Shown here piece by piece: positions 7,966-63,600 of a DNA stretch of 64,000 bases. Origin of the DNA: Cyanidioschyzon merolae (Eukaryota); NCBI GenBank assembly GCA_000091205.1, contig AP006501.2. One strand, given 5' to 3'. The position numbers were made by a program, and so were the translations under genes. Position 1 is the stretch's first letter; each line of letters begins with the position of its first letter. The notes under the pieces were generated by a model. The model did no database searches and was not told the DNA's origin. It saw only the letters and a list, made by a program, of their open reading frames with translations.

Positions 7966-8286
7966 AAGAAGTGCCTTTCTGCGGAACACTGCGAACTGTT
8001 ATGGGTCCATGCGTCCACGCTGCACACGACCGTCGGTAGGACACGTGGCTGCACCGCGTTCCCCGTTCCAGTCCGGTCGATGCGGTACCGTCAACAACCG
8101 CACTGGAGACGTGCTCTTCCAGAGTTCTACCTACGCGTAAACTAAGACCGCGGCGGGTACGTGCGCTTCTTATGGACCCTCTGTGGGTACCCGGCAGAAC
8201 TCGCTAGCGGTCGGGTAACGAGCGCACCACTGCTACGGCTCCTGTACAGGGGCTTCGGCGACGGTGCCTGCGCACTCTCTTTTCTT

Positions 8287-8640
8287 TTCGCTCACCAAAC
8301 GTTTATGTTGTACCTGGATCCCTTATCGCGGGACGAGAACTGGCTATCGGGAAAACGCCCATCGTGATACGCCTCACCCTCAAGTTCCATTCCTTACAAT
8401 TCCTTTCGGATGTACTGGTCGTTTCATAGGTTGTAGCGAGCATCGAGTGCCCGTCGTGCTGCATCCACCTTGGCGCCTAGACAGCTGGTGCAGATGCACC
8501 TTAGAGACAGAACGGCTTTGCCGTACCACTGGGGGCTTCGGCTCGAGATGTGGTGCACCTGACACGGATTCGGAGTCCATCATCATGCTGGGGGCCTGGA
8601 AACTGCGCTGAAAGAGCTACCGTCTGCGGCAGCTCGAAGC
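8287..8640 (+). repeat. conserved ~300-nt structured module (copy 1). Candidate omega-RNA scaffold, element end or MITE
   Basis: Homologous to 38985-39338, 51556-51835, 56320-56620 (reverse complement) and partially to 18700-18790. Conserved core ggtgcagatgcacc ttagagacagaacgg ... gggcttcggctcgag, containing a hairpin GGTGCA-GA-TGCACC and a UUCG-type loop. Confidence 0.6.
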
Positions 8641-11616
8641 GACATGCCGGGAGTCCACTGCGACCAGGGCGACGCCCAGACGCAGCCTAACTGCTGCTCC
8701 TAGTCCCAGAGTCGACTGCGTTGCGGACGAGGTGTTCAGGTCGCACCACTGCACTAGGCACAGGTAAGGGCGTGAAGCACTAGTCTTGCAGACTCGTTCG
8801 GATTGCGGGACGTTTCGCCCTGAAGGCAAACTTTCGAAAGTATGGAAACCTTTTCGCCCTTTTAACGGCTACCGTGGAATGGGACAGGAATCGTTACATC
8901 GTTTCTCGTGAATCGTTCGTCTCTTTCCTTTTTTTCTCCGAATAGCGCGGTCGATAAGCACACCTGCGAGATCACGCAGTCACGAGAGACGACGCGCATG
9001 TCGCCGATGAAGGGAAACGCGTTTCTAACTATGCTCTGACCTATTGCCCTACCGTACATGTTGTATTCGAATTACAGGCGTAGCGGAGTACAGTTTTTTG
9101 AGTTCAATCGCGTTTGAAACGTCAAGTAAGCATATTCAAGTGATGCTGTGCGGTGTATAGGAGAAGCGTTCAATGTGCGTTCTTTCGCAGAAAAAATTCT
9201 AAAAAAGGAAAGTTATGAGAAAGCAAGTCGACGATCGCGGAGGCGCAGTGTCGCCGGCTGCCAGAAAAAGAACGAAAAACGGTGCCGAGCCCAGGAGCAC
9301 AGGCAAAGACGATGAAGCAGAAGCGGGAGGCCCTACGTCAAAGGCCGCGGGAAAGACAACAGTACGACGAGACGGTGGTGAAAGCGTACCTTCGTAAACA
9401 TATCAAGGATGCCTACAAGGAAAAGTTGCGAGAGGCCATCAGAAACCGTGTCGAGTCGTACTCCACGAGTACGAAGAAGGCTTCGTCAGGACTGATGCAT
9501 ATGATGAACGAGATGCACGACAACGCGACGGACACCAGAACAGTCGAGGTTCCGGGGGAATTTTTCAACAAGACCTTTGCTCGTCACCTGATGGTCGGCA
9601 CAGGGGAGCCGTCGACAAACAATGAGCGAGTGCACGCCTTCCACGAAAACTTCGCGGGATTCGGCTTCGAAGGTGCATCGATACAAGGGTTACGGGGATA
9701 TTCACATCTACGGGCCGATCGAGTACCTCGCGAACCTGAGGAACCATTTGACCATGAACCTCGAAGGTTTCATGATAAGCGCCGTGTTTGCGCTCTACCG
9801 GGGCCTCTCTCGCGGGGAAGAGATGGGCCATCTTCGCTGCCATCACCAACGATCGTCAGCATGAACAGGCAATAGAATTTGTCGACAAGATGACATCACG
9901 CAGGAGCATGAATGAAGCATATGTGATCGGTGCAGCTATTCAAGAGCGTCGTGGTGACACGGAGGTAGGGGGTTGGATAGATACTTCACCTCGCACTGAA
10001 AAAATATCACAAAAAGTAAGGAAAGTAAAATGCGCATAATCGGAGAACGCTGGCCCAAGTAAACGTTTTGTCCATGGAAAAAAAGAGCATCGTGAAGTCT
10101 TGGGGCTGGCCAACCCGACAGAAGACGTGTCAGATATGAAAAAAGTGAGAAAAGATGGTACCCCCGCATCCTGCGCTACTTCGTGTGTCTGGACCGAGAA
10201 CTCGAACGCAAGGCGGAGATGGTGCTGGGTGTGTGGAAAAATGAAGAGTCGCGGAGACGGAACGCTTTCCCAATGGGGAAGTGCTTCAACGTGGTTCCAA
10301 TGAGCAACATCAAGTCACATTTTGTGACTATCGACCAAGGCGTCCACTACGGCAACATGAGTGAGATCAGTCCGGTGTTCGGTGTCAGCAGGGAGGAGTT
10401 CACCGGTGAAAATCGGGAGACGTACCGGAAGAGTCTCTTCGGTTTCAAACGTCTCAAAGTGAGCAAGCAGAAGGTATTCACGGGGATGATCGGAACCGAT
10501 GGCGTAGCCACGTGTGTACGCTATCGGAGGTTTGAAGGCGGATTGTCCAGTTCGGCCTTCGATATCGCCCGTGACGAAGCATGAAGAAAACAGGGAGGAG
10601 GATCCTGCCACACAGAAAGTGCAGGATAACGACTTTGTCGTTGACGCGACGAAGCGTGAAGATGAGATGGAGGCGGGTCCTGCTACGCAGAAAGTGCAGG
10701 ATAACGACTTTGTCGTTAGTGCGGATCCCGGGAACACAAATATCATAACCATCGCAGTACCCAAGCGTGCGGAAGATGGTATCAACGGCAACCTACGTCA
10801 GACGGCCCTGCGAGTTTTAAGGTTCTCGTGAGCGGGATGCTATCGAGAATCCGGTATGATCAATGCGAGGAAGAAAATTGAGACACGGAATGCAGGAATG
10901 AAGGATCACCTGGAAGCTTTGCGCGGAGTAACGAGCAGAGGAGCAGGCTTTGAAGCTTTTCCGATATTCATGGAAGGTCGCGTTGCTCATTGGGATGCGC
11001 TGCTGGAGGAGTATACAAAGCCCCGGTGGGCTCGTCTGCGTATGAATCTGTACGGTGGTAAGCAGCGGGCATTCGCCAAATTTTTCAGTCAGTTGAGTGC
11101 CTTGAAGGAGGACGAGAGCCAGAGGCTGGTAGTGGCATACGGAGCAGGGCGTCCACAAAAGGGTGCACACCAGCTCCGTCGACGAGAACGTACAAAGCGT
11201 GTGCACGGCGCTTTGTAATGATACCGATTGATGAGCTCCGAACGTCCTATACACACCACGAACTGGGGTGCACACTTGAGACGGTCGACATGGAAAAGTG
11301 CCAGCGGAGTCCTGAAGATATGAAAAAGTATGGAGCGCTAACGGAGGAGCAAATGGACAGGAGGGCGAAAGTTCGTGGACTACTCGCATTAGTAAGTACA
11401 ATCAATGGCAAGAAACGCATGGAAATTGTTAACCGCGACTTTAACGCGGCTACCAATATAAGGAGGTGCGCGGTGATGGAGAGAAGACCTCCGTACTTGA
11501 CAAGAGGGAATTTTGTAGGGAAACCTCTCGAGGTGGAATTATACGAGAAAAAGTTGAAACCGGTAGTAGGTGGCCGGTCCAAAAACACTGGGATGCGTCG
11601 ACAAGTCTGTAGAAGA
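8287..11616 (+). mobile_element. Fanzor/TnpB-like (OMEGA RuvC nuclease) element, copy 1. Contains a 5' structured ~350-bp module and a frame-disrupted ~800-aa Fanzor-like gene
   Basis: About 99% identical to 38985-42308. Encodes RuvC-I-like [16 protein letters not shown], a TnpB-like DELRTSYTHHELGC (vdp.YTSq.C) and the RuvC-III signature NRDFNAATNIRRCAV. All family copies share a 3' terminus about 20 nt after the GGRSKK codons. Confidence 0.65.
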
Positions 11617-11628
11617 CTTTTCGTCTAG
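9215..11628 (+). pseudogene. Fanzor1-like TnpB-family nuclease gene, copy 1. It is frame-disrupted, with an extra in-frame TGA near 10829 that is absent in copy 2
   Basis: Consecutive ORFs 9215-9397, 9282-9875, 10183-10584, 10514-10831, 10856-11218 and 11218-11628 sit in different frames. N-terminus is K/R-rich and NLS-like (KRTKNGAEPRSTGKDD). RuvC-I is near 10709 and RuvC-III NRDFNAATNI near 11430. Confidence 0.55.
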
Positions 11629-12118
11629 GGCGCCGGTCACCACTACTTTGCACTACCGACCACAGCGTTTTTCTTTAGAAAGGCGTTTTTTGTCGGCGAT
11701 GTGAGGATTCTTTTACATGCTTAAAGTACTGCGTCAACCAGATCGAGTCCGTGTCTCGAGCTGAGCACTTCCGGTAGCGTCTGGTCGTCGGCCATTTGGG
11801 AGCACGCGCCCTAGACGAGCATCGTGTGTGTGGCATTACCTGTGTGGACCAGGTTTGTCAAGGGAAACAATTTCACGCTGAGTTCCAAAAGTTCGGTCCT
11901 TGTGTATTTTTGCTTGCCAGGAGCACAGGTCACCAGCAAGGAAGTTCGTGATCAGATACTGCCAAGATCCGACGAGTCGTGTAGCATCGTCCCGGAGATG
12001 TTAGGGCAGGCCCCCGAGCTACCACTCGCAAGCCACGCATTCGCCTCGCAGGTACGTGAATCATCGACAAGAAGCCGGATTCAATGGCACATCCTGAACA
12101 TCTCAGCAAATCGTGATC

Positions 12119-16776: not shown

Positions 16777-17304
16777 AGCAGGTATTGACTTGCCGATGAA
16801 GAATGCGCCCTTAGGAAATTGAGTGCACGCCCACCTATCCAAGAACTTAGCCGTGACCGATGCGGCCTTTGGAAAATCTCACGTAAAGCTGGATGTCCGG
16901 TTCAGGCTCTACGCAGGAGCGAGCTGCGCATTCCTGTGAGGTGCTGCACGCCCGTACGGAGACTCCGGTCGGCGGACTTGCCGTCGCTGGTGCATACAGG
17001 GAGCCGCTTTATCTGTTTTAAAAATGCGGTGCAGCATGGTCTGGTCCGGTCTAGAGCAGGGCGCTCCTCGGTTAGAAGCGTCTCCTCGTCCGCGCACAGG
17101 ACGGCGCTGGCGAACCGTTACCGTAGCAGCAAGTCGGCCGCAGTGCCTCACCAGACCAGTGTCCCCCACGACTGACCGAGACGCAGTCGGTGCTTTCGTC
17201 AAAAAAGCTGCGGACAGGCATTGCCTATCAAGCAGATAATCCAAAGGTTTCCGCAGCTGCATCGGATGCGCAACTGAATCAGCATACTTTCTCTATCTTA
17301 TGAT

Positions 17305-18114: not shown

Positions 18115-18699
18115 GGTGTTCGCTTATTGCCTCTGAGCGAGTAGTGATTCGTTCCGTTAACAACACAGCGTTGCCGCGGACACAACGCTCGATCGTTGGT
18201 CTATCCAGAAAGAGGAGATCCGCCAGCCTGCAGCGAAGCGATGTTTCCTCCTGTCGTGTGCAAACACTCTGAAGCGCAACTCGTGGACGATTGGAGACCG
18301 GCGCGAATGCGACGCTGCGGACGGCACGACGAGGCGGTGTGTCCATTTATTACCATCTCGTACCATCTTTTCCTTTTATGGACTTATTTGGATCAGATGG
18401 AATCGTCCTGCACGACGAGGTGTCGTGTCCTTTGATTGCAAGTTTATCTGATTTGTTTCGTTCATTACAAAGATGTAAAAGATATCTTTCGTAGTCCCTG
18501 CATGTGCGTTCCGCTTATGCGTGTGTGACACCAAATTCATGCCGACCTGTGAGCTCAGATCGCGCACTCGATACCCGTGGTTGGGAAGGTGTCCATGATT
18601 CTAAGCCCCGCCTCCATGTTCGATGACCTACACTTCTCCTCGGCGACACTAACTGTTTCGTATGCTCCATTGTACGCCGGGCCTTCACGAAGCGGTCTC

Positions 18700-18790
18700 A
18701 TGAGCGCCTAACAGCGCCTGTGCGGAGGTTGCTCGGAGACAGAACGGCTCTGCCGCACGACCGGGGAGGCCGGCTCGAGCATACATGTTT
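18700..18790 (+). repeat. partial, diverged copy of the conserved structured module core
   Basis: ggagacagaacggctctgccgcacgaccggggaggccggctcgagcatacatg aligns to the module core ttagagacagaacggctttgccgtaccactgggggcttcggctcgagatgtggtg. Confidence 0.4.
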
Positions 18791-25365: not shown

Positions 25366-27864
25366 GCGACGTCTACGTACCTCGCCGGGGAACCAGCAGC
25401 AAGCATCGTTGTGGTGTGCGTCGGACCGAACGCTTCTCGATAGACGGGCTAGATTGGGTCCGCAGCGACGCCTTGCGAGCACCTTCACCAGCGGTATCTG
25501 GACATTAAAGGTTTGTATTCGGGAACGGAATGTTTGGATTGTACAGCATGCGGAGAAACTGCTGCGGCACGTATAGGGCTTTGGGGATAAGCGCAAAGGC
25601 GGGACCTTTGGTGCCGTTGCATTAAGAATGATAGTTTATTTTCTTATTTGCCGCGAAGGATTTGTTCTCCGTGGCCTAGGATGAGATCATACGATCTGTA
25701 AAGCTTCACACATGTTGTGCATGTTTCCAGGGCGACCGTGCTCGAGCGCCGAAGAAGGGTTTCGCAGGGTACTTGCACCGCAGCATGCATGGTCCGCGCT
25801 TGCTGCTCACCAATATTAAAAACCTCATCCATTGCCCATAGTGGCGTTGAAGGATCCAGAAAAAGCAAGTCCTGCTGTGTGCGTCTTGTGCCGATATGCT
25901 GCGGACGCGAACCTCCATGAGGAACGCGCTCAGGGAACGGAGAAAATTGCCCTTGCTCCGCAGTCATTCTAGGAAGGATTTATGGTTTTGGTCTTTCTGG
26001 CCTCTAGGTTGACACCTTTTGAGGATGAAAGACCTCGTACGCACGGGTCGTTCTCGCGGTGGTCCATGTGATTACCATGTCCATAGGTGGGATCGTTCCA
26101 AATCCAGCATCCCTTTCGGATGCGAAACGCTGCGGTTCGGAGCACTGATCTGGTGGTATGCATGTGGATACCGCGTTACCCGGTGACAACCAGGCTGTGA
26201 ATTTTCACTTTATGAAATCTGGCTCAGCATAGCACGCGAGTCGCTCATTGGTGCAGACGCTCACCCACATAGGTTCAAGCCACGTCAGGCAGCAGTGACG
26301 AGAGCGTTGCAGGCTATCGCGGCGGGACGCAGAAGCTGATGTGGCATAAACGTCCGGGAACGGCCTTGATGCACCGATCAAGGCTCCGTAGGTCACGCGT
26401 GGTAGATATGTATATGAAGTTGTAAAAGTTGCGAGTCTGGCGTCCGTGATCCATCTACAGCAGCGCCAGATTTGCATAGAAGACTGCACCGCTAGCGCTT
26501 CTTCTGCTTTTCGATTTTTCCGAACTGATGTTAGATGCAAAGCCTCGATATTTGAAGTGTAGCAATGAGGGCGTACGTTTTCGTGCGTAGTGCTAGAGAT
26601 CTCTGACCCATTCACGGAGAAGCGCGTTCGACGCTTTGCTGGCGGGATTCGTCACGTCACCGCTATCACGAAGATTCGCGATGTTCTCGAGCAAAACATT
26701 CATATCTATGTGGTGCAATTATTCAATGCATACGCACAAGTGTCCACTTGTCTCCCTTGAGTACGTCTAACATGCTCAAAACATGCATTGTTCAAGATTT
26801 GACCTTCTGTTTCAGGGAAACTTGAGGGCGCAACAGTTCGCACCGTTGGATTATCATGGAAAAAATACTCGACGTCGTTTTTTGAGGAATTCCTAAAAAG
26901 CTCATCCCGAAAGCTCACTGAACCCGTCACGTAAACTGCTCGATTCCGTTCGAAAAATGATTCTCTTCCCTTGGTAGTCATCAATGAAACGGCACTCGAC
27001 AGCCGTATGATACCCCTCGCAGGGCATGTTCTCAGAGACTATCTTCTCGACTGTTTCCATGGAAACCAGTCTTGGCACCAGACTTTGATCGCAACGATCG
27101 CTACCAGTGGAGCTATCGTTACTGCATGGCACGAGGAAAGGGTATACGGATCGACACTTTTCGACCTGTTCTCTAGACTGGATTTTGCCTCCGGTACTTG
27201 TTCCATCATGGACAACACCGCGTTCCGAAAAATCCGTCATCGAATGGAACGGCATGCGCTTCCATGTGCAGCGAAGCGTATACTTGTTAGGTGAATCGTC
27301 CAGAAGAAGGCCACGATCGCAGGGCACGGCACCGGATAAGAAAACAGATCAGAGCAATGAGAGCAGCTTTCTGTAACCGTGAACTGTGCGTATCGAGCAA
27401 TGGAGCAAGCGTTCACGCGCTACATTTGGGCCGGTTTGGAGGAAGTTTGACGGATATACTGTAGAGCTTGTCCACATTCAACTGTCACCGCTGTGAACGG
27501 CGCACCGAGGCTATGCATAAAGGAGATCGACCTGACGAACGAAGCATAGACCACAACTACCGCCTATCCGTGGTATGCATCAACAACCTCCGGAATCAGC
27601 GTCATTGAAACCTGAGCGCTACCGTCAACTTCCCTCGACTGCGGGCAACAGATCTGTAGTGGAAGAGGCGACCGGCTGATTGAATGCCGAAGATAGTAGG
27701 GTTGAAGCGCAGGCATTCTTAGAATAAAGCTCTTAAATTCTTATGTTGATGATAGTGGGAAGATAACCACACATTCGTGTGTTCGTCTGGGGAAGAGCCT
27801 ATGTCCTAGTTTAGAGTAACATGGCAGTGAAGCGAAAAATGTACCATGACGATATGGGGTAAAT

Positions 27865-28135
27865 TAATATCCACTCACAGGCACCCCGCAGCCTTTTTCG
27901 ACCAGCCCCCTGTTATCGGCTTCAGCTTCTCTCCGTACACTTCGAGCCCGAGAGGCTACCCCACGGAGTTGGATGGCGCCAGCTCCTCGGATCTCGTCTT
28001 CAGCACTAGACATCATCTCATCTTGATGGCGGCGTTGAAGTCTCGGTTCACAAACTCCTTGCATCCATTGCCGCTGGTGGAACACATTCATGCAAGGATT
28101 CCTTGAACTCGCGCCCTCTATGCCATTACAGTCTC
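27865..28135 (-). pseudogene. degenerate Fanzor/TnpB C-terminal fragment (RuvC-III NRDFNAA retained, then a stop)
   Basis: Reverse-strand translation gives RVQGILA*..NGCKEFVNRDFNAAIKMR*. The sense ORF 27846-28106 matches the antisense of Fanzor copy 1 (HLILMAALKSR vs HLLILVAALKSR). The 3' end ggctggtcgaaaaaggctgcggggtgcc aligns to the family 3' terminus. Confidence 0.55.
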
Positions 28136-28786
28136 GTAATCCTTCTATTGGGCAAACATATTTTTGTTTGCCTATCTCCCCTCCCCCTCTTCCTTTTCGA
28201 TATATGCTCTTCTTCACTCGTTAGTCGGCAAGAACAGAAACGTTTATGTGTTTTTCCTGCAGCCCGTAATGAAGGCCCTCCACCATCCCCGACTTCCATG
28301 TCCATACCTCTCCCTTGTATTTTTCATTTCTTCAAATGAACGTACTTCGAACACATCTGCTATAAACAGCGAATAAGCGTTTGATGATACGCTTCTTGAG
28401 ATGGAACCTAAATGAATCGAAAGAGTAGAGGAGCCAGACGGGTATGAGGTCGAAACTAATCTGAAACAATTTAGTATAAAATTTGCAACTGCGGTACGCT
28501 GGACCCCCGCGATCGCTATGAAGCGTTCCCCGAAATCATTTTCATACCAGTAATTCTCTTACTTTAACCAGAGGCCAGACTTGGCGCGGTACGAGATTCT
28601 CAGGCTCTTCCTCTAAGTTTCTCAGTGGAACAGGGACCGACGGCGTCACTGTTGCTGTTGCGGAAGAGTCCGAGCTCGTGCTTCGTCTGTGGCTTTCGGA
28701 CGCGAAACACTTGTTGCTAACAGGCAGCTCACACACACGCACAGGAGCGTACCAGTGCTCCGCGACGTACGGTGATACTCGACTGC

Positions 28787-31137: not shown

Positions 31138-32327
31138 ATTGTTTGACTCGGAATAATGAATTCTGAAACACCTGCATCAGCACGCCCTGTTTGTTTTTTC
31201 TACGGGTATTCAAGAGGAGTGTATCTTGCACACCGGAGAAAGGTCGCCGAACGACCTTATGTCGTCACTGCTTCCTCATGAGAAAGCCCGCTTTACTAGT
31301 GCACGGCAGACATTCTCCGGACAGCCTCGCTTCACACACGAACAAGGCTCTCTGCAAAAAGAAGCCCTTTACAGCAATACAGACCCGTCCCGGACTCCGA
31401 GCGCCCTCGCGCCCCCATCACTGGCATCGGGGTACGACGGGCACCAGGCGGCACACCGGCATGTAGAGTGACGGTGCAAGGACCGTTCTCACCGGCCTGC
31501 GTAGCGTATCCAGCAGAGGCGCACGCCTTCTCGGCTTTATTCAGAGGTCGTCCGTGAGCGTCCAGACGTCTCATGCGGACGCTCTTCGGCATGTATGCAT
31601 GAGACTGCGCTGGGCGGTCGCCAATGGTTTCGGTTGTACGCAGACAAGACGGGTGCGTTCCCCAAACGGCTCAGTGACGTGGGAAAGGAAACGACTGAGC
31701 AGTCGCGTCGTCCGGTGGGGAGCCCCATCGAGCGGCACCCGACGCGGCGCACGAGGCCTGTGATCCCGCTTCATCGACCGGAGCTTCCCGCGGGAGCAAG
31801 CATCGACGCTGCACTGTGCCCATCGATGCGTTCAGGGCGTTATGCAAGCGGCACCAGCACGGGCACACGCTGAGGCGGGCACAGAAGAAGAGCGCGAAAC
31901 ATGCGCGCTCGGATGCACCGGATGGTAAGCGATAAGCAGCGTGCACGTCAGACGCAGAGCCAATCGCAAGTGAGCGGCTCGATATCGCGTGATCCAGCAA
32001 GCAACCATGCGCGCAAGCACTCTCTGCATCACGACTTTAATGCCTCGGGCGACATCCGGGACTGTCTGATGCATCGAGAGCATCCAGTGAGTATTACGTC
32101 GAGCGAACCTTGCGGCAATCGTTTGGTACCCAGTGGGCGCATTCTGCTGCAATGCTGCGGATATCCGTCAAACAGAATACGAATCCATGGGAGAGCGGCA
32201 TGTTTTGCCTTGGTGGATCACGGCACTGGTGTGGTGCTGCTCAGCAATGCGGAAAGCATTGAGCGCGGTACGGATACTCTGGGGACGATTTGCGTCCGCA
32301 ATATCTGAAAGACAATAATGTTTCAAT
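31138..32327 (+). repeat. 1.19-kb direct repeat, copy A (partner 35204-36393)
   Basis: About 97% identity at a constant offset of 4066 bp. Many ORF pairs are identical (for example 31191-31466 and 35257-35532). No RT/integrase and no TG..CA LTR termini seen. Confidence 0.8.
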
Positions 32328-35203: not shown

Positions 35204-36393
35204 ATTGTTTGACTCGGAATAATGAATTCTGAAACACCTGCATCAGCACGCCCTGTTTGTTTTTTCTACGGGTATTCAAGAGGAGTGTATCTTGCACACC
35301 GGAGAAAGGTCGCCGAACGACCTTATGTCGTCACTGCTTCCTCATGAGAAAGCCCGCTTTACTAGTGCACGGCAGACATTCTCCGGACAGCCTCGCTTCA
35401 CACACGAACAAGGCTCTCTGCAAAAAGAAGCCCTTTACAGCAATGCAGACCCGTCCCGGACTCCGAGCGCCCTCGCGCCCCCATCACTGGCATCGGGGTA
35501 CGACGGGCACCAGGCGGCACACCGGCATGTAGAGTGACGGTGCAAGGACCGTTCTCACCGGCCTGCGTAGCGTATCCAGCAGAGGCGCACGCCTTCTCGG
35601 CTTTATTCAGAGGTCGTCCGTGAGCGTCCAGACGTCTCATGCGGACGCTCTTCGGCATGTATGCATGAGACTGCGCTGGGCGGTCGCCAATGGTTTCGGT
35701 TGTACGCAGACAAGACGGGTGCGTTCCCCAAACGGCTCAGTGACGTGGGAAAGGAAACGACTGAGCAGTCGCGTCGTCCGGTGGGGAGCCCCATCGAGCG
35801 GCACCCGACGCGGCGCACGAGGCCTGTGATCCCGCTTCATCGACCGGAGCTTCCCGCGGGAGCAAGCATCGACGCTGCACTGTGCCCATCGATGCGTTCA
35901 GGGCGTTATGCAAGCGGCACCAGCACGGGCACACGCTGAGGCGGGCACAGAAGAAGAGCGCGAAACATGCGCGCTCGGATGCACCGGATGGTAAGCGATA
36001 AGCAGCGTGCACGTCAGACGCAGAGCCAATCGCAAGTAAGCGGCTCGATATCGCGTGATCCAGCAAGCAACCATGCGCGCAAGCACTCTCTGCATCACGA
36101 CTTTAATGCCTCGAGCGACATCCGCGAATGTCCGGTACTTCCAGAGCATCCAGTGAGTATTACGTCGAGCGAACCTTGCGGCAATCGTTTGGTACCCAGT
36201 GGGCGCATTCTGCTGCAATGCTGCGGACATCCGCCAAACAGAATACGAATCCATGGGAGAGCGGCATGTTTTGCCTTGGCGGATCACGGCACTGGTGTGG
36301 TGCTGCTCAGCAATGCGGAAAGCATTGAGCGCGGTACGGATACTCTGGGGACGATTTGCGTTGGCAATATCTGAAAGACAATAATGTTTCCAT
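35204..36393 (+). repeat. 1.19-kb direct repeat, copy B (partner 31138-32327)
   Basis: See copy A. The 2.9-kb spacer carries the RimM-like and MRG genes. Confidence 0.8.
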
Positions 36394-38860: not shown

Positions 38861-38984
38861 GGCTTGATCGTCACCAGTTGCTACCAGTACGCACTGTTGT
38901 TCGCCAAACGATCGAGAGGCGACGTCGATGAGCGCGTCAGCATCTGGCAATCGCGCCGACGCGCTCGAGTCGGTGACTTTTTTC

Positions 38985-39338
38985 GCTCACCAAACGTTTA
39001 TGTTGTACCTGGATCCCTTATCGCGGGACGAGAACTGGCTATCGGGAAAGCGCCCATCGTGATACGCCTCACCCTCAAGTTCCATTCCTTACAATTCCTT
39101 TCGGATGTACTGGTCGTTTCATGGGTTGTATCGAGCATCGAGTGCCCGTCGTGCTGCATCCACCTTGGCGCCTAGACAGCTGGTGCAGATGCACCTTAGA
39201 GACAGAACGGCTTTGCTGTACCACTGGGGGCTTCGGCTCGAGATGTGGTGCACCTGACACGGATTCGGAGTCCATCATCATGCTGGGGGCCTGGAAACTG
39301 CGCTGAAAGAGCTACCGTCTGCGGCAGCTCGAAGCGAC
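38985..39338 (+). repeat. conserved structured module, copy 2
   Basis: Near-identical to 8287-8640. Confidence 0.6.
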
Positions 39339-42308
39339 ATGCCGGGAGTCCACTGCGACCAGGGCGACGCCCAGACGCAGCCTAACTGCTGCTCCTAGTC
39401 CCAGAGTCGACTGCGTTGCGGACGAGGTGTTCAGGTCGCACCACTGCACTAGGCACAGGTAAGGGCGTGAAGCACTAGTCTTGCAGACTCGTTCGGATTG
39501 CGGGCCGTTTCGCCCTGAAGGCAAACTTTCGGAAGTATGGAAACCTTTTCGCCCTTTTAACGGCTACCGTGGAATGGGACAGGAATCGTTACATCGTTTC
39601 TCGTGAATCGTTCGTCTCTTTCCTTTTTTTCTCCGAATAGCGCGGTCGATAAGCACACCTGCGAGATCACGCAGTCACGAGAGACGACGCGCATGTCGCC
39701 GATGAAGGGAAACGCGTTTCTAACTATGCTCTGACCTATTGCCCTACCGTACATGTTGTATTCGAATTACAGGCGTAGCGGAGTACAGTTTTTTGAGTTC
39801 AATCGCGTTTGAAACGTCAAGTAAGCATATTCAAGTGATGCTGTGCGGTGTATAGGAGAAGCGTTCAATGTGCGTTCTTTCGCAGAAAAAATTCTAAAAA
39901 AAGGAAAGTTATGAGAAAGCAAGTCGACGATCGCGGAGGCGCAGTGTCGCCGGCTGCCAGAAAAAGAACGAAAAACGGTGCCGAGCCCAGGAGCACAGGC
40001 AAAGACGATGAAGCAGAAGCGGGAGGCCCTACGTCAAAGGCCGCGGGAAAGACAACAGTACGACGAGACGGTGGTGAAAGCGTACCTTCGTAAACATATC
40101 AAGGATGCCTACAAGGAAAAGTTGCGAGAGGCCATCAGAAACCGTGTCGAGTCGTACTCCACGAGTACGAAGAAGGCTTCGTCAGGACTGATGCATATGG
40201 TGAACGAGATGCACGACAACGCGACGGACACCAGAACAGTCGAGGTTCCGGGGGAATTTTTCAACAAGACCTTTGCTCGTCACCTGATGGTCGGCACAGG
40301 GGAGCCGTCGACAAACAATGAGCGAGTGCACGCCTTCCACGAAAACTTCGCGGGATTCGGCTTCGAAGGTGCATCGATACAAGGGTTACGGGGATATTCA
40401 CATCTACGGGCCGATCGAGTACCTCGCGAACCTGAGGAACCATTTGACCATGAACCTCGAACGTTTCATGATACGCGCCGTGTTTGCGCTCTACCGGGGC
40501 ATCTCTCGCGGGGAAGAGATGGGCCATCTTCGCTGCCATCACCAACGATCGTCAGCATGAACAGGCAATAGAATTTGTCGACAAGATGACATCACGCAGG
40601 AGCATGAATGAAGCATATGTGATCGGTGCAGCTATTCAAGAGCGTCGTGGTAACACGGAGGTAGGGGGTTGGATAGATACTTCACCTCGCACTGAAAAAA
40701 TATCACAAAAAGTAAGAAAAGTAAAATGCGCATAATCGGAGAACGCTGGCCCAAGTAAACGTTTTGTCCATGGAAAAAAGAGCATCGTGAAGTCTTGGGG
40801 CTGGCCAACCCGACAGAAGACGTGTCAGATATGAAAAAAGTGAGAAAAGATGGTACCCCCGCATCCTGCGCTACTTCGTGTTTCTGGACCGAGAACTCGA
40901 ACGCAAGGCGGAGATGGTGCTGGGTGTGTGGAAAAATGAAGAGTCGCGGAGACGGAACGCTTTCCCAATGGGGAAGTGCTTCAACGTGGTTCCAATGAGC
41001 AACATCAAGTCACATTTTGTGACTATCGACCAAGGCGTCCACTACGGCAACATGAGTGAGATCAGTCCGGTGTTCGGTGTCAGCAGGGAGGAGTTCACCG
41101 GTGAAAATCGGGAGACGTACCGGAAGAGTCTCTTCGGTTTCAAACGTCTCAAAGTGAGCAAGCAGAAGGTATTCACGGGGATGATCGGAACCGATGGCGT
41201 AGCCACGTGTGTACGCTATCGGAGGTTTGAAGGCGGATTGTCCAGTTCGGCCTTCGATATCGCCCGTAACGAAGCATGAAGAAAACAGGGAGGAGGATCC
41301 TGCCACACAGAAAGTGCAGGATAACGACTTTGTCGTTGACGCGACGAAGCGTGAAGATGAGATGGAGGCGGGTCCTGCTACGCAGAAAGTGCAGGATAAC
41401 GACTTTGTCGTTAGTGCGGATCCCGGGAACACAAATATCATAACCATCGCAGTACCCAAGCGTGCGGAAGATGGTATCAACGGCAACCTACGTCAGACGG
41501 CCCTGCGAGTTTTGAGGTTCTCGAGAGCGGGATGCTATCGAGAATCCGGTATGATCAATGTGAGGAAGAAAATTGAGACACGGAATGCAGGAATGAAGGA
41601 TCTCCTGGAAGCTTTGCGCGGAGTAACGAGCAGAGGAGCAGGCTTTGAAGCTTTTCCGATATTCATGGAAGGTCGCGTTGCTCATTGGGATGCGCTGCTG
41701 GAGGAGTATACAAAGCCCCGGTGGGCTCGTCTGCGTATGAATCTGTACGGTGGTAAGCAGCGGGCATTCGCCAAATTTTTCAGTCAGTTGAGTGCCTTGA
41801 AGGAGGACGAGAGCCAGAGGCTGGTAGTGGCATACGGAGCAGGGCGTCCACAAAAGGGTGCACACCAGCTCCGTCGACGAGAACGTACAAAGCGTGTGCA
41901 CGGCGCTTTGTAATGATACCGATTGATGAGCTCCGAACGTCCTATACACACCACGAACTGGGGTACACACTTGAGACGGTCGACATGGAAAAGTGCCAGC
42001 GGAGTCCTGAAGATATGAAAAAGTATGGAGCGCTAACGGAGGAGCAAATGGACAGGAGGGCGAAAGTTCGTGGACTACTCGCATTAGTAAGTACAATCAA
42101 TGGCAAGAAACGCATGGAAATTGTTAACCGCGACTTTAACGCGGCTACCAATATAAGGAGGTGCGCGGTGATGGAGAGAAGACCTCCGTACTTGACAAGA
42201 GGGAATTTCGTAGGGAAACCTCTCGAGGTGGAATTATACGAGAAAAAGTTGAAACCGGTAGTAGGTGGCCGGTCCAAAAAGAATGTGAGGCATCTGCACG
42301 TCGACTGG
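38985..42308 (+). mobile_element. Fanzor/TnpB-like element, copy 2 (more intact than copy 1)
   Basis: Same structure as copy 1: 5' module, NLS-like N-terminus, Ruv[18 protein letters not shown] near 41404-41451, and NRDFNAATNI near 42126-42155. Its left end is about 125 bp upstream of the 6PGDH ATG, and its right end about 150 bp upstream of the isoamylase ATG. Confidence 0.65.
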
Positions 42309-42344
42309 AGGCGCATTGTCGAAAGCGCGCCGCGCTCCCGTTAA
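39911..42344 (+). pseudogene. Fanzor1-like TnpB-family nuclease gene, copy 2. It has about 3 frame breaks and no internal stop in the 41209-41913 segment; either a recent pseudogene or intron-interrupted
   Basis: ORFs 39848-40093, 39978-40571, 40878-41279, 41209-41913 and 41913-42344. The C-terminal segment reads MIPIDELRTSYTHHELGYTLETVDMEKC...GKKRMEIVNRDFNAATNIRRCAV. HHELGY here versus HHELGC in copy 1. Confidence 0.55.
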
Positions 42345-49835: not shown

Positions 49836-51404
49836 TTACTGCGCTGGTGCGGATGCCTCCTGAAAAGGCCAGCCGAATTGCTGGAACACCTGGGAGAAGC
49901 GAGCTCGAGCATCTCCAGATACCGCTATTGAGATATGCCCGTCCAAATTCAGACGCAAATCAACTAGATCAGTGAAGAGGATAGTCGACTGCAGCGGCTC
50001 CGAAATGAGCCCTTCATGTAATCTTGCCGTCTGCACGTTGCAGCGCCTCAACGACGCACACTGCAGCGTGAAACGCGCCGGCGGGGTCAGCTCCCGCGCC
50101 GGTGACGCTGTGCTCAGGTCTATTGCCCGATGCAACGCCTCTGCGGCGTGACGTGGGTTTCCCCAAGTGGAGCCCAGGGGGCACACCAGGAGTCGCAGCC
50201 GACTCGTCTGGTTATCATCATCAGGTGATGCTTGATTCGGTGCACTGCGGATCGCGTCTTCGGCAGGTAATCGTTCACAGGCGAGCGCCTCCACGAGTGC
50301 CCGTAGAAGCTGAACATCGGAACCGGAACCGTCATATGCTACCAAGATCACAGGCAACGTCGGACACTGCGATTCTGCAGATTCACCATGCAGGGAAGTA
50401 GCGAGGGCGAGACGCAATCCCTCGAGCCAGTCTGTCACGACCTGCACAAGTTGCGGTTTCCATGGATACGATTCTAATTCACGCAGAAATCTGCTGACAA
50501 GATTTGCACGAATCATGCCATCGAACCATCGGGAAGCATCCGTACCGAGAAGGAGCAAACGCACTGAAAGCAGTCGCTGCAGAGCAGCCTGTGCGGGATC
50601 TTGGCTCGCATGCCGGTGCTCCACATGCGCTATAGCAAGCTGCTGAACTTGATTCTTCGTCTTCTGCTTTCTACCGCATCGCTCATCCTCATCCCGATCT
50701 AAGTGCGTAAAGTCATCGAAAAGAGCGCTTTCCCGGCGCAGCAGCGGGTTGCGCTCGGTATCGCTCACTCGTCCGATCGAAGTGTAGCCCGCATCGTACA
50801 GACTACAGTACTCCAGGTGGAACGTCCGCAAAAAGCGCCAAACCGCCCGATATGACCAGTGCAGGATCGGATTCACGCGCAGAAACGAGGGCCATTCGGG
50901 GCTCGACGGGCTCAGATGCTCCTGGCTGGGTCCGTCCGGGTCTATCCAGCGCGTTCCCAGAAGAAAACAACGCACACGCGGACGTATCTCTGTTAAATAA
51001 GTCTTAAGACCATGAAAAATTCCCCCGGGTACTCGATCAAAAACCAGCTGGTCGGCGTAGCGGCGGGACCAGTCTGCCACAAACTCGAGCACTTCGGGAA
51101 ACTGCTCCTGAGGATCCGGTTCCTCAAAAAATACTGCTTGAATGTGTGGTGCCGGCTTGCGTTCTTTATATAGAGACTGAAAGGCTGCTCGTGTTAAATG
51201 GAAAACAACAGTGGCGTCCTTGCCTCCATTAAAACTCAAGGCAACCTCCTCCGGTTCAAAAATGCGCAGAACGCCACGCAGCAGTTGGAGCGAGCTGGTA
51301 ACCCCAGGAGCCAGATCGGGTGCGACCTGTTCGATGCACTCTAATTGTTTCCATAGAGGCTCTTCATTTTCTGTTTGACTATCATCTTTACCGACACCAA
51401 GCAT
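49836..51404 (-). CDS. FAD synthetase (FMN adenylyltransferase, PAPS-reductase-like fold) with about 250 extra C-terminal aa
   Basis: LSFNGGKDATVVFHL...LLGTRWIDPDGP...NPILHWSYRAVWRFLR matches the eukaryotic FAD1/PAPS-reductase-like domain. Real ATG start. Confidence 0.65.
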   Translation of the reverse strand: MLGVGKDDSQTENEEPLWKQLECIEQVAPDLAPGVTSSLQLLRGVLRIFEPEEVALSFNGGKDATVVFHLTRAAFQSLYKERKPAPHIQAVFFEEPDPQEQFPEVLEFVADWSRRYADQLVFDRVPGGIFHGLKTYLTEIRPRVRCFLLGTRWIDPDGPSQEHLSPSSPEWPSFLRVNPILHWSYRAVWRFLRTFHLEYCSLYDAGYTSIGRVSDTERNPLLRRESALFDDFTHLDRDEDERCGRKQKTKNQVQQLAIAHVEHRHASQDPAQAALQRLLSVRLLLLGTDASRWFDGMIRANLVSRFLRELESYPWKPQLVQVVTDWLEGLRLALATSLHGESAESQCPTLPVILVAYDGSGSDVQLLRALVEALACERLPAEDAIRSAPNQASPDDDNQTSRLRLLVCPLGSTWGNPRHAAEALHRAIDLSTASPARELTPPARFTLQCASLRRCNVQTARLHEGLISEPLQSTILFTDLVDLRLNLDGHISIAVSGDARARFSQVFQQFGWPFQEASAPAQ

Positions 51405-51555
51405 ACGGCTGTTGCCCTGCGCGTCCTATTGTACGTTCCCAGGGCGACACGTCCCGCGAACCCCGCTGGCTCACAGAAGCAGAAACCGGAGGGGTGCGCT
51501 CCACGCTGCCGGATCCGCCTCCGCGTCGAGCACATCGCTGCGTTTTTGCTCAGTT

Positions 51556-51835
51556 TTACAGAATGTTTCCATGGACTAGGGATACCAGATTGCGGGATGG
51601 ATATTGGCATTCGGGAGTGTGCCCATCATGATGCAACCTATGCTCAAGTTCCATGATGCATACTTTTTCTCGGGGGTGTACTGGTCGATTTGAATGTTGT
51701 ATCATGCGGCGAGTACCTGCCTTGCTGCAGCCGCTATACCGCCTATACCGCTGGTGTGGATGCAACCTAGAGACAGAACAGTTTTGCTGTATCGCAGAGG
51801 GCTTCGACTCGAGAATGTAAACTTAACCTTCTCAA
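51556..51835 (+). repeat. conserved structured module, copy 3, directly abutting the 3' end of a reverse-strand Fanzor fragment
   Basis: Aligns over about 280 bp with 8287-8640 (ctcaagttccat ... ggtgtggatgcaacctagagacagaacag ... ggcttcgactcgag). It lies about 150 bp upstream of the FAD synthetase ATG. Confidence 0.6.
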
Positions 51836-52260
51836 AGGCGCCTCTCGGCCTTTTTCGACCGGCCACCTGCTATCGGATTGAGTTTCTTTCTGTGCATATC
51901 GAGCCTGAGAGGCTGGCCCACAAAGCTGAATCGCATCAGCTCCTGGGGTCTCGTATCCAATACCGCACATGGTCTGATTTTGATGACGACGTTGAAGCCT
52001 CGATGCACAAACTCCATGCGTTTCTTTCCTCTGATGGAACGCAAAAGTGCTAGGATTCCGAGAACTCGCGACCTCTCTCCGATTCCAATCGCGCCATCGT
52101 CCCACAGGGCAAACTCCTTTTCTCGCCCATCTCCCTGTTCTTCTTCTTCTTCGTCACTTGCCCTTCTTCGCTCGATCGTCAGCGATGAGAGGTGTTTTCC
52201 CCTTTTTTCGTCTGCCAGCAATAACCACCAACCAGGATTCCCGACTTTTATGTCCATATC
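51836..52260 (-). pseudogene. degenerate Fanzor/TnpB C-terminal fragment (RuvC-III motif decayed: RDFNAATNI replaced by RGFNVVIKI)
   Basis: ORF 51832-52257 (-): ...LALLRSIRGKKRMEFVHRGFNVVIKIRPCAV...RKKLNPIAGGRSKKAERRL. This aligns with copy 1 LALVSTINGKKRMEIVNRDFNAATNIRRCAV...KKLKPVVGGRSKN. Nucleotide ggtggccggtcgaaaaagg matches ggtggccggtccaaaaa. Confidence 0.6.
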
Positions 52261-52679
52261 CTTCCCTTAGATTGTCACCTTCGTCAAAATGAACGCACTT
52301 TGCGTATATCTGCTATGAGCGGAGAATAGACCTTTGATGACACGCACTTGCAGGTTTTTTCATGGACAAAACGTTTACCTAGGCCAGCGTTCTCCGATTA
52401 TGCGCATTTTTCTTTTCTTACTTTTTTTGTGTTATTTTTCCAGTGCGCGGGAAAGTATCTGTCGAACCGCACGCACTTGCAGGTGGAACGCAATTGAGTT
52501 GAACGGTCATGAGCGCAGCACCTGGACGCCGCTTCCGCTGCGCTCCGCAGCCGCTGGCGATCGACGGCGGCTGCGGCGGCGGCCAAATGGCGAGCACAGC
52601 AGTCTCGTTGGCGTGAAGCGCGAGCATTTCTTCTCTCGAAGAGCTTTTGTTGGGAACGTTGTGCCCTTCCTGGACGGAC

Positions 52680-55483: not shown

Positions 55484-56319
55484 GAGCGGCTGGTTCTTGC
55501 TATTGGCGCTCGCCGAGAGCTCGGAGACAGCGTTTACCTTCGATTTTAGCGGCCGTACGTGCAACCGCCTTCCATGCTCCCCTGTACGAAAGCGCTGCCT
55601 CCGTAAACGCACACCGCTGCAACGTCTGCGCAGCGTTTGGCGCGAGCCGCTAGGCGAACCGTGCCGGCCCTTCCAGAAAAAACGTCCCGGAATCCCAAAG
55701 AGTATACCAGTCGTTCCAATGACGCTATTTAGAATTCGCTGAGTTGAAACGTTACCCGTGGACACGTCCAGTGTCTCCGTTCCGGAGCGAGTGATAGAAG
55801 CGCGCTTCGAGCAACGCAGTCGCCAGCGGAGGCACTGCATACAAAAGCTGCAATACAAAGGATTGTCTGCGATGCGCAATCGCCATGCGCTGTGGAGTCG
55901 TCACAGAGAAGGACAGGCACTGCCCATTTACTAATTGCGACTGTTCCAAATGAAGACAAGTCGCCAGGAACTAGCAACTAGATAACATTTCGTTCCACCT
56001 TCATGGTAAGCGTTGCAAAAGGGGAACTTTTTCCGTATTTTCGAAAGATTACCTTCGAGGCGGAAAGTCCCTCGCGCCAGACGAGTCTGCAGGGTTGGTG
56101 CTTGAAGCTATTCCCAGCGGCGGGTACAGTGCCGAGACCTCATTAGCTCGTCCACAACGCAGTTATTTTGGGACTTGGGGCGCCAAGGCTGCATCCAGGT
56201 ATTGGCTTGGTCGCAGTGGTCCCCTAACATATCGGTCCGTGCTGTCGCAAGCAGTATTTCTGGCTGCGCAGCTTGCAGGCTCCCAAATTGATGTTGAGTC
56301 CTGATTCTGTGACTTGTGA

Positions 56320-56620
56320 ACCATGACGCGAGTCGAAGCCCTCTGCGATACAGCAAAACTGTTCTGTCTCCATGTTGCATCCACACCAGCGGTATAGGCG
56401 GTATAGCGGCTGCAGCAAGGCAGGTACTCGGCGCATGATACAACATTCAAATCGACCAGTACACCCCCGAGAAAAAGTATGCATCATGGAACTTGAAAGT
56501 AGGTTGCATCATGATGGGCACACTCCCGAATGCCAATATCCATCCCGCAATCTGGTATCCCTACTCCATGGAAACATTCTGTCAACCAAAAGAATCGTCG
56601 TGCGGTCGATTGGCGCGCTG
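56320..56620 (-). repeat. conserved structured module, copy 4 (solo, inverted relative to copy 3, which lies 4.5 kb away)
   Basis: 56320-56620 is the reverse complement of 51556-51835 at about 95% identity. It ends exactly at the ctcgag motif with no adjacent Fanzor sequence. Confidence 0.6.
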
Positions 56621-61409: not shown

Positions 61410-63189
61410 TCAGATAAAATGTCTATTTTGTCCAGAGAACGCAGTGAATGCCGGAACATCTGAACATGCACACCCTTTTTGATCGTATTTGCTGTTCTCG
61501 TAGGTATTCAACAGAAGGAATCTATTCTGTGAATTGGAGAAAAGTTGCGAATAGAGTTTATGCAACCGTCGCCAGCCGGCGTGAAAGAAGACTTTTCGAG
61601 TCAGTCATTCGACGGTTAGAAGCTGGTTAGGGCACGATCCTCATCGACCTTTTCCTAAGCGTCATGCACCCTGGGCAGAAGTTATCAAAGTATACGCATA
61701 GAAAAGAATCCTCTTGAATCCGCACGCTCTCTATGAAAAATCAGTAAAGATGCCAGAGGATGTAGAGCTTCTCTGGCTTTCATACAAACCGGAATAGATA
61801 CGGATAGCCGTTGAAAAATGCACGTTTCTGTGGAAGAACGTCGTGCGATATACCACACGCGATCGACGTGGCATCGACACGCGAACGCTTCGTATACCAA
61901 GGACAGGTGTTCGTTTCCATCGATGATATATTGTGTATTATAATTGGTAGATCCGTATATACGTACTCCAAGATAGGCAAGCGATCGTCCGTAAACAAAT
62001 GATCAGCGAGCATTCCAGCAACTTCTGCACCAGCGGCGATCCAGCGGGTACTCGCCTGGAAATCGCAAAAAGGGCAGGGTCGTTCCACACCTCATTCCTC
62101 GTAGAGGCACCCTGCGAGGTTTCTCTTTGTTGCATTCCTCCGTCCTGCTGTTGGACAACAAAGATTTCCACCACTCGTCAGCAGTCAAAGAGTACGCACC
62201 TGGCATTGTAGCTGAGCTGCACTTTATGCAAGCCTATTCTCCATAGTTCTTACCAGTTGAAGGCATCTTCTGTGGTTTCAAACGTCCTTTGTATGTTCAC
62301 AGATCAATAGACGAGCGTTTCGTATCCGCGGCACTGAAGCTCTCCAGTAAGCTAGTATCTGCATTTTGCAGCCCTGAACTTCTGTGTGGCTTGATCGCTC
62401 GTGCGCGCGACGGTACGGAAGCACCATCTCGATACCCTCCTCCGTTTCTGCGCTCAGTGTCGTACCCGACGATCAAGGGCGTTTTCCGGGCGATGACCCT
62501 GGCAAGCGCTCAGTCCAATATAGGTGCAAGCGTACGCTATTTCATTCGATAGAGGATTTGGGGAACGTGATGTTTTCCATGATGAGACAGGCGCCGAAAA
62601 CAAATTCCAGGCTAGAGATCAAGTCAAAAAGCTCGATCCCTCTACGCTTCCTCTACTGGGCGCAACCGCTGCGGTCACTAATGTCCGCGTCCCAGGCTCT
62701 TGTCCATGCAATCCGAAGAGATGAGAGCCCGTCACGGCCTATACTGTGCGAGGTACAATGGTGCTGTCGAAAGCCATGTGTCCTATGCCCCAAAATTAAG
62801 AAGGATTGGTCTATCGAACATAGGGACTAAGTTGACAAGAAAAATTCAGCAATCTTTTGGCATGAGCTTGTGAACCAGCTTTCAAAAGTCCGTATCGCGT
62901 TTTTCGTTCCTTCGTCACTCCAGTGGCAAGAATCGCTGCGCTCACGAGTTGCCTAGAAACAGCAAGATTGGAAACGTGAAGCATGCATCAATTGAGCACA
63001 CCATATGTATGGAATGGGCAAGCATAGAGGCTCTTACATGAGCGTTGGATCATGATATCGGTCATGTTCTGATCCTCTCTTGAGGGCGTCGGGAATCATC
63101 CTGATGCCGCTGACCTACGTCTTCGTGAAACGAGAACGGTTTCACGACCGTGGAGAGCAAATTCGGACTGAATCGTAGGGATGCCTCCC

Positions 63190-63600
63190 AGCCGTTTTTG
63201 ACCGGCTGCCATATTCTCGATCCAGTTTTTGTCCAGGTAAACTTCGAGCCAGGCAGACTGCCCCACAAAGTTACATCGCGTCAGCTACGCGGGTTTCGTC
63301 ATTAGTACCATAAATCGTCTCATGTGGATGATGTTCTTCAAGTCTAGGATCACAAACTCCATGCGTTCGTTGCATCTAGTTGAACTCACTAGTCCAAAGA
63401 TTCCTCGAACTCGAGCGCGCAGTGCCATTTGGTGCTCTGTCAGCTCTGCGCGCTTTTCTGTCGCAGAATCGCTCCGCCGGCTCTTCTCCATTTCGTTCCT
63501 CTGAAGTATACGCCCCAGTTCATCCATTAGATTTTCTCTTTCGTCAAGCGAACATACTTCCTCACGCTCTTAGGTCAGGAGTTTCCCAGAGGATCGAAAG
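63190..63600 (-). pseudogene. degenerate Fanzor/TnpB C-terminal fragment (zinc ligands and RuvC-III decayed)
   Basis: ORF 63285-63527 (-): MDELGRILQRNEMEKSRRSDSATEKRAELTEHQMALRARVRGIFGLVSSTRCNERMEFVILDLKNIIHM. This aligns with copy 1 HELGCTLETVDMEKCQRSPEDMKKYGALTEEQMDRRAKVRGLLALVSTINGKKRMEIVNRDFNAATNI. The 3' nucleotides ggcagccggtcaaaaacggctgggaggcatcc match the family terminus. Confidence 0.55.

Follow-up and report, generated by a model that had tools for sequence, protein, structure and literature searches.

In a 64,000-nt stretch of Cyanidioschyzon merolae DNA, here called the window, three minus-strand fragments are probably S-type remnants of the CMe-1A family, that is, relics of a short lineage of Fanzor1 elements. 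In the reading that we favor, a 20-mer starts the 3' region of the element, which extends for 102-106 nt in the main lineage and for 60-95 nt in the S-type lineage, and the body shared by two long copies (copies 1 and 2) has been recopied. Copy number, decay and both ends of this family have been on record since 2013, and the derivation of the Fanzor guide RNA from the 3' end since 2023. To this, the short S-type lineage and the mosaic of body and tail in copies 1 and 2 are minor additions.

CMe-1A and its membership in Fanzor1

CMe-1A is a C. merolae Fanzor1 family of ~150 copies with ~80% identity to a consensus of 3169 bp, whose two ends have both been determined and which carries neither terminal inverted repeats nor a recognisable target duplication; TE-N2_CMe is identical to the 5' 635 bp of CMe-1A (Bao & Jurka 2013, PMC3627910). 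The published 3' consensus terminates in ...CCAAAAAGACTGGGAGGCGTCTGCACGTCAG...GTTTTTCTTTTGAAAGGCG, 102 nt past the AAAAA run from which distances are counted below (Bao & Jurka 2013, Additional file 2). The window copies share with CMe-1A the organism, the 5' end, the protein, the 3' consensus, the lack of terminal inverted repeats and the presence of many ~80%-identical copies. The 5' terminus of the CMe-1A consensus, CGATGACAAAACGTTTACATTGACC, agrees with the left ends of the window copies, the published CMe-1 protein matches the family of an intact relative described below (P0003), and the main-type tail consensus obtained here, GACTGGGAGGCGTCTGCACG TCAGTTGGAGACGTTTTGTCTAGGGCGCGTTTCTCGCCACTACTGTACACCGCTGGCGGCAGCGTTTTTCTTTTGAAAGGCGTTTG, agrees with the published 3' consensus through ...GAAAGGCG. 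With both ends and the organism matching, the window repeats are identified by sequence as CMe-1A and its 5' relative TE-N2_CMe. As in TE-N2_CMe, the 5' ~630 bp also stands as a separate element, of which the window holds a full-length example at 55967..56594 on the minus strand (left-end profile positions 3-628). Unlike published CMe-1A, the full-length window copies are pseudogenes with an extra 135-bp insertion. Three features are absent from the account of CMe-1A by Bao & Jurka (2013), namely the short derivatives of the S-type, whose tail is their own, a ~265-bp left-end-only form and the body/tail mosaic of two young copies. The host ORFs of the window are intron-poor, plastid-type eukaryotic genes with 55% GC, and the ORF at 49836-51404 on the minus strand is residue-for-residue identical to the FAD synthetase BAM82816.1 / XP_005538852.1 of C. 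merolae 10D.

Profile homology and predicted fold establish that the family belongs to Fanzor1. When 1.8 billion representative proteins were searched with a profile, 1436 relatives were recovered, from which a 62-sequence alignment (A10) was drawn. The A10 profile matches the solved Fanzor1 structures of Parasitella PpFz (9cf0, E 1.7e-20), Spizellomyces SpuFz (8gkh, E 3e-12) and Guillardia GtFz (9cer, E 4e-5), and direct Pfam and PDB searches with a single protein or a shallow profile gave no match. The A10 motifs are DPGRxNI, VDEFRTT and NRDLNAAxNI, in which the catalytic residues D484 and E656 never vary and D725 does so only rarely. AlphaFold2 required this deeper alignment: the model of P0003, an intact 752-aa relative, reached a pLDDT of 81 and a pTM of 0.79 with A10, and a run with only 16 close sequences was unusable (pLDDT 32). 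When the P0003 model was compared with the PDB by Foldseek, the best seven matches were all Fanzor1 (SpuFz, PpFz and GtFz; E 6e-16 to 8e-13), with TM-scores of up to 0.73 as normalised by target length, and Cas12 proteins surfaced weakly. The family thus resembles the characterised Fanzor1 proteins SpuFz1, GtFz1 and PpFz (Saito 2023; Jiang 2023; Xu 2024) in fold, in profile homology and in the RuvC motifs of intact relatives (DPG..N, VDEFRTS and RDFNAAxNI). It differs from Fanzor1 systems in that the CMe-1A copies lack both terminal inverted repeats and an associated transposase, and in that the three fragments have lost their catalytic residues: RuvC-I and RuvC-II are wholly absent from all three, and RuvC-III is kept in one alone (fragment A), beside a stop codon. 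Because the fragments lack catalytic motifs and copies 1 and 2 are frameshifted, the window copies are relics of the Fanzor1 family and not functional members.

The main-lineage right end and the mosaic of copies 1 and 2

Where does the main-lineage element end? Every member of the family keeps the last ~100 Fanzor codons, the GGNCGGTCNAAAAA motif and a ~20-nt segment, which is conserved as strongly as the coding sequence. A scan of metagenome contigs, which sample Cyanidioschyzon populations in the environment, yielded 438 relatives, and the 80 loci taken from these comprised 44 distinct ones. Across the 44 distinct main-lineage loci, column identity stays at 0.7-0.9 up to ~+106 past AAAAA and lies at a background of ~0.4 beyond. 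Copy 1, a full-length CMe-1A at 8285..11691 on the plus strand with a TE-N2-like left end and a broken Fanzor1 ORF, matches the main-family profile at positions 1-182, that is, to 11691 (+106), and carries a complete main-type 3' non-coding tail at 11586..11691 with a terminal hairpin at ~11664-11687. Copy 2, at 38980..42338 on the plus strand, has a copy-1-like body to 42280 followed by a different, old main-type tail, and matches the profile to 42338, where it is cut (+58); the same locus was recovered from a metagenome (L005). In another metagenome locus (L001), an intact 752-aa ORF stops 75 nt before AAAAA and the downstream sequence is still conserved, under a constraint that thus does not act at the protein level. 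These 44 loci, together with the published consensus, place the main-lineage right end ~102-106 nt past AAAAA. The 20-mer is the start of the 3' non-coding region and not the end of the element.

This placement modifies the picture given by the first-pass annotation, in which all copies end with GGNCGGTCNAAAAA and ~20 nt followed by unrelated DNA. The motif and the 20-mer are indeed shared, but the element continues for 106 nt in copy 1 and for 58 nt in copy 2, and the "20-nt tail" (11586-11605 in copy 1) is merely the first segment of a longer one. Similarly, the family has a defined right end without terminal inverted repeats, as had been proposed by analogy with IS200/605-type TnpB elements, but this end lies ~102-106 nt (main lineage) or ~60-95 nt (S-type) beyond the ORF-end motif and not at ~20 nt. 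Like IS200/IS605 TnpB elements, CMe-1A has a TnpB-family nuclease gene at its 3' side, lacks terminal inverted repeats and forms a sub-terminal hairpin (terminal hairpin P3) close to its right end, past which its guide would presumably be read, as in those elements. In contrast, CMe-1A is a eukaryotic nuclear element in whose copies no TnpA gene is seen, and its non-coding region extends well past the ORF, as has been noted for Fanzors generally (Jiang 2023). No second long ORF with a Pfam match is found inside copies 1 or 2. Because the right end is ~100 nt past the gene, a guide or target-adjacent motif predicted from the "20-nt tail" would be drawn from putative scaffold sequence instead of guide.

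Copies 1 and 2 had been taken as intact; in both, however, the Fanzor1 ORF is disrupted by the same frameshifts, of which there are three or more, and by a ~135-bp insertion. Over 8285-11585 of copy 1, the two copies show 22 differences in 3301 nt (99.3% identity). From 11586 onward, there are 8 differences in the next 22 nt, and similarity falls further after that. The loss of identity was earlier located inside the 20-nt tail, but the break falls at 11585/11586, at the first tail base. Both tails are recognisable in their first 22 nt, matching the consensus at 17/22 positions in copy 1 and at 19/22 in copy 2. The break is thus a recombination junction, at which a recently copied body meets two different old tails. 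Ectopic recombination or gene conversion would be the likeliest route by which the body was copied between the two loci, and each locus would have retained its own old tail; the body would already have been dead, given its frameshifts, when it was copied. A 3.3-kb gene-conversion tract with its limits precisely at the 5' terminus and at AAAAA is atypical. Young copies in which body and tail have different histories could merit specialist attention, and these mosaics and the S-type copies bear on how transposase-free eukaryotic Fanzor elements propagate.

The exact position of this junction opens another possibility, which we regard as unlikely: the copied unit may end at AAAAA, with the tail resident at the recipient site, as an older element's tail or as a preferred target, and bodies may arrive by break-induced homing or gene conversion, possibly triggered by Fanzor cleavage, with co-conversion of the flanking tail over variable distances. 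Copies 1 and 2 fit this scheme, being 99.3% identical from the very 5' end to 11585 and followed by tails that are only 60-64% identical and yet are genuine family tails. In addition, in every other near-identical pair of metagenome paralogues identity breaks down within the tail (at +47, +65 and +70) and never at the right end, the first 20 nt are retained in both tail lineages, and homologous recombination stimulated by breaks is a known effect of TnpB-family nucleases. However, the metagenome pairs may be chimeric assemblies, and the copied body is a frameshifted pseudogene. Moreover, tails are always attached to bodies: in the ~320 kb searched (the window and 100 loci), there is no convincing solo tail or empty site, the best candidates being weak (16934-17027, E 0.22; L034, E 0.039). 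On the same lack of convincing solo tails, the idea that the tail is a module or target repeat in its own right was rejected. In a Mantel-type comparison of body and tail relatedness, even neighbouring 60-nt segments of the body show correlations of just r 0.02-0.30 with each other.

The minus-strand fragments and the S-type lineage

The three fragments were mapped by self-BLAST, alignment and nhmmer with copy 1 as the query, which matched them at E 1e-21 to 1e-25. The core of fragment A (28134-27877, minus strand) corresponds to copy-1 positions 11345-11602, and a second segment (28399-28239, minus strand) corresponds to 9122-9283; the whole S-type element, at 27808..28443 on the minus strand, comprises this 5' piece, the decayed C-terminus and an S-type tail to ~+68..+86, with the AAAAA finishing at 27894. 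Fragment B (core 52082-51832, minus strand, equivalent to copy-1 11353-11604) lies within a remnant at 51818..52349 on the minus strand that retains the decayed C-terminal coding part (RGFNVVIKI, GGRSKK) and ~33 nt of tail, its AAAAA finishing at 51851; an ORF, P0121, is called at this locus in metagenomes. Fragment C (core 63523-63173, minus strand, equivalent to copy-1 11258-11606) is a remnant at 63124..63523 on the minus strand with a decayed C-terminus (LDLKNIIHM) and an S-type tail to ~+70. These alignments bear out the assignment of the three fragments to the Fanzor C-terminus, and the A10 profile and P0003 model matches support their description as decayed Fanzor 3' portions. The fragments are real but dead remnants of the CMe-1A family.

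The decay of RuvC-III that had been read from the translations was reproduced exactly by tblastn. Fragment A reads EFVNRDFNAAIKMR*, that is, RDFNAAIKMR and then a stop; fragment B reads EFVHRGFNVVIKIR, that is, RGFNVVIKI; and fragment C reads EFVILDLKNIIHMR, with ELGRILQ...EKSRRS and LDLKNIIHM. The reported replacement of the Cys ligands by Arg and Ser was likewise seen in fragment C. The GGNCGGTCNAAAAA motif occurs four times in the window at one mismatch or less, against 0.21 expected, and fragment C carries a version with two mismatches; the ~20 nt that follow are conserved in 5/5 window copies. The fragments had been described as old, 5'-truncated or recombined copies. They do keep 3' portions, but A and B are not simple 5'-truncations: both join copy-1-like 9122-9283 to 11345-11602 through the same internal deletion and are therefore members of a short non-autonomous sub-family.

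The fragments belong to a discrete short (~0.55-0.65 kb) non-autonomous lineage, which we term S-type. Protein searches with the peptide of fragment B and then with a small alignment recovered six further independent S-type loci (L083, L091, L092, L094, L096 and L097, found via P0122, P0123, P0273, P0280, P0300 and P0274), all of which carry QPLRLE...IAGGRSK-type remnants. The S-type relatives also include an annotated C. merolae gene, CML056C. Fragments A, B and C leave the main-family profile at positions 89-93, 15-19 nt past AAAAA, and the six loci leave it at 90-99, except L097, in which the alignment is carried to 164. Beyond this point, the S-type copies have a tail of their own, roughly TGGGTATATATAT..C..ATGGTCGTGAAACCGTTCTCGTTTCAC. 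Pairwise local alignments of the +21..+90 segments give a mean z of 1.99, with p<=0.01 in 9/28 pairs, against a mean z of 0.11 and 1/28 pairs for the +91..+170 flank control. Fragment C against five S-type loci reaches z 3.6-5.1 in the tail, and fragment A against fragment C reaches z 3.4. With fragment A as the query, nhmmer extends homology to +61..+95 in other S-type members and to +68 in fragment C. The S-type tails are ~50-60% alike, their 3' end is fuzzy (+60..+95), and their 5' boundaries are scattered over positions 158-259 of the fragment A query. Beyond +20, pairwise tests detect no significant similarity between S-type and main-type tails; the S-type tail may have replaced the main-type tail or may simply have diverged from it. 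The ~+20 point is the site at which the two tails diverge and not an element end. As a distinct group of short copies that have retained nothing but the 3' module, the S-type could merit specialist attention.

Fragment B is the sole real early stop. Its homology ends at ~+33 (51818). Only 4 nt away, at 51551..51814 on the plus strand (left-end profile positions 3-264, E 1.5e-84), lies a short, inverted left-end (TE-N2_CMe-like) fragment, which abuts and truncates the tail of fragment B. Position 51556, earlier marked as the start of a Fanzor fragment, in fact belongs to the terminus of this left-end fragment. The left-end fragment shares 97% identity with an inverted partner at 56329-56585, the first 257 nt of the 55967..56594 element. 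The 4.5-kb segment between the inverted pair occurs in both orientations in natural populations, and loci with the FAD-synthetase orthologue show the identical junction of fragment B with the left-end fragment and an inversion variant. A second short left-end-only fragment, at 18533..18787 on the plus strand, ends at profile position 271, as the 51551-51814 fragment does. A clean insertion of the left-end fragment into the tail of fragment B is not supported, as its in silico removal fails to restore an S-type tail. The S-type tails are also not inverted left ends in the manner of terminal inverted repeats, since the left-end profile matches only the flank of fragment B and not A, C, D or E. 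On its other side, fragment B adjoins a copy of an unrelated ~135-bp interspersed repeat (52355..52471, minus strand), which is not Fanzor-derived. Insertions of this repeat interrupt the ORF of copies 1 and 2, and it occurs in L001 as well; a 114-bp piece at 52355-52471 was therefore rejected as a part of fragment B.

The S-type tail bears directly on the earlier proposal that the element, as an IS200/605-type unit, ends ~20 nt past the GGRSKK codons and that the fragments are 5'-truncated copies followed by unrelated DNA. All three fragments leave the main profile within 4 nt of one another, and strict scoring among A, B and C alone reveals no significant similarity downstream of their shared stop, as this proposal predicts. 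However, an apparent common terminus at ~+20 arises because the S-type fragments were compared only with main-type copies. With six more S-type loci, fragments A and C are homologous to +61..+95, fragment B stops where the inverted left-end fragment begins, A and B share an internal deletion that is not a simple 5' truncation, and the 44 main-lineage loci and the published consensus run ~102-106 nt past AAAAA. The alignment of copies thus contradicts a consistent 3' boundary at +20, and we consider an end at this point very improbable. Scarcely credible is a reading of the fragments as reverse-transcription-type 5' truncations with a poly(A) remnant at the 3' end, which would suit the preferential retention of 3' portions and the A5 run near the apparent end but is refuted by an A-run that is in frame as the Lys codons of GGRSKK (AAAAA or AGAAA in every copy) and by conserved element sequence 60-106 nt beyond it, and which is further at odds with 5'-only (TE-N2-like) derivatives that are equally common and with elements that contain no reverse-transcriptase ORF.

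The 3' tail as a putative guide-RNA scaffold

In characterised Fanzors, the guide RNA is transcribed from the 3' non-coding sequence next to the right end; sequence conservation runs on into the ORF, and the guide itself is read from DNA past that end. Chlamydomonas has 20 extra stand-alone guide-RNA copies (Jiang 2023; Saito 2023). CMe-1A resembles these systems in its conserved and partly structured non-coding region from the ORF end to the right end and in conservation into the ORF, and its stand-alone 3' copies recall the Chlamydomonas guide RNAs. By this analogy, the main-type tail is a putative guide-RNA scaffold, a proposal in which our confidence is moderate at best. The conserved 3' region, including the 20-mer as the 5' strand of a stem, would be the scaffold of a Fanzor guide RNA (omega RNA or fRNA), and the short copies would persist because they have retained this cis-acting 3' module.

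The predicted pairing is in keeping with such a scaffold. Within the 20-mer, GAGGCGUCU can pair with AGACGUUUY 14 nt downstream; this stem is 84% paired and rich in G-U pairs, and it is therefore strand-specific. On its 3' side, the main-type tail has a GGCG...CGCC hairpin and a terminal 10-bp hairpin, the latter present as two sequence variants in different registers (mean z -1.8). In the named tail structure as a whole, 78.6% of cells pair, against 41-59% with slid partners. Doubly changed cells number 22, against 13.4+-2.8 in shuffles (2/500 shuffles reach 22), which amounts to modest covariation. Stem P1 shows one-sided changes only and weak energy statistics (mean z -0.84). RNAalifold on the tail alone gave no consensus structure, and an Rfam search with the tail gave no match.

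A more ambitious and quite doubtful extension of this proposal makes the body/tail junction itself functional. The 20-mer and the ORF-end motif would form the core of the guide-RNA scaffold, bodies and S-type copies would be spread mainly by break-induced gene conversion into tails already in place and less by classical transposition, and the S-type copies would be stand-alone guide-RNA genes served in trans by the few Fanzor proteins that are still intact. If this were true, break-induced conversion into old tails would explain why identity is lost inside the tail in every young pair.

Left-end fragments and an inversion polymorphism

The left end of the Fanzor1 element CMe-1A, which is its 5' part, occurs by itself at window 18533-18787 (+) and 51551-51814 (+). 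These two left-end-only fragments have a common internal endpoint at left-end profile 265-271, and a conserved hairpin (ACGGC-TTT-GCCGT / ACAG-TTTTG-CTGT) lies immediately before it. The shared endpoint after the hairpin suggests that a discrete short left-end form of ~265 nt exists beside the 630-nt TE-N2_CMe form.

The fragment at 51551-51814 also belongs to an inverted pair. Its inverted partner at 56329-56585 (-) lies 4.5 kb away, and the paired sequences (257 nt each) are 97% identical. Between them are fragB, a decayed remnant of the short, non-autonomous S-type Fanzor1 lineage, a 390-aa ORF and a DUF1499 gene. Contigs from metagenomes carry this 4.5-kb segment either way round with respect to the FAD synthetase gene: locus L099 has the orientation of the window, and L103 is inverted. 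The difference between L099 and L103 is an inversion polymorphism across the left-end repeats.

Repeats within the Fanzor ORF

A ~135-bp interspersed repeat, whose copies are 88% identical to one another, interrupts the Fanzor ORF in full-length pseudogene copies 1 (9954-10094) and 2 (40650-40790). Further copies are located at window 52355-52471 (-) and at 1390-1525 (-) of metagenome locus L001, the intact Fanzor ORF of which is free of the repeat. Because its edges within the ORF resemble GT...AG, the repeat could be an insertion resembling an intron or introner; it could also be a small MITE or SINE.

The ORF additionally contains a coding 75-bp tandem repeat (10570-10717 and 41265-41412). 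The repeat number differs among family proteins, with about two in the window copies and about five in protein P0002, and the repeat region (residues 374-469) is disordered in the structure model (pLDDT <50).

Mosaic 3' ends and a candidate solo tail

Mosaic 3' ends are observed in metagenome loci L020/L021, L035/L036/L077 and L011/L039. L020 and L021 share 96% identity to +65 (counted past the AAAAA of the ORF-end motif) and then carry distinct terminal-hairpin variants. L011 and L039 are 97.7% identical over 1.9 kb, flank included, with many differences inside the proximal tail, and appear to be one genomic locus sampled twice, in two samples. Either genuine recombination or chimeric assembly could account for the mosaic contigs.

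Just one stretch of the window, 16934-17027 (+), is a candidate solo tail: it weakly matches the main-type tail alone (nhmmer E 0.22) with no Fanzor body upstream, and the match is probably due to chance.

Other large repeats in the window

A 1190-bp direct repeat (31138-32327 and 35204-36393, both +; 98.7% identical) has its copies on either side of a RimM-like gene. Both copies contain a far more divergent Fanzor-like C-terminal remnant (tblastn with family protein P0003, residues 541-752, E 1e-4 to 2e-6) that lacks the GGNCGGTCNAAAAA motif.

For the arms of a 1352-bp inverted repeat (14324-15675 and 19527-20878), the repeat finder gives 100% complementarity and BLAST gives 99.6%. Each arm contains an ORF of 316 aa that matches nothing in Pfam. 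The short left-end fragment 18533-18787 sits within the 3851-nt spacer.
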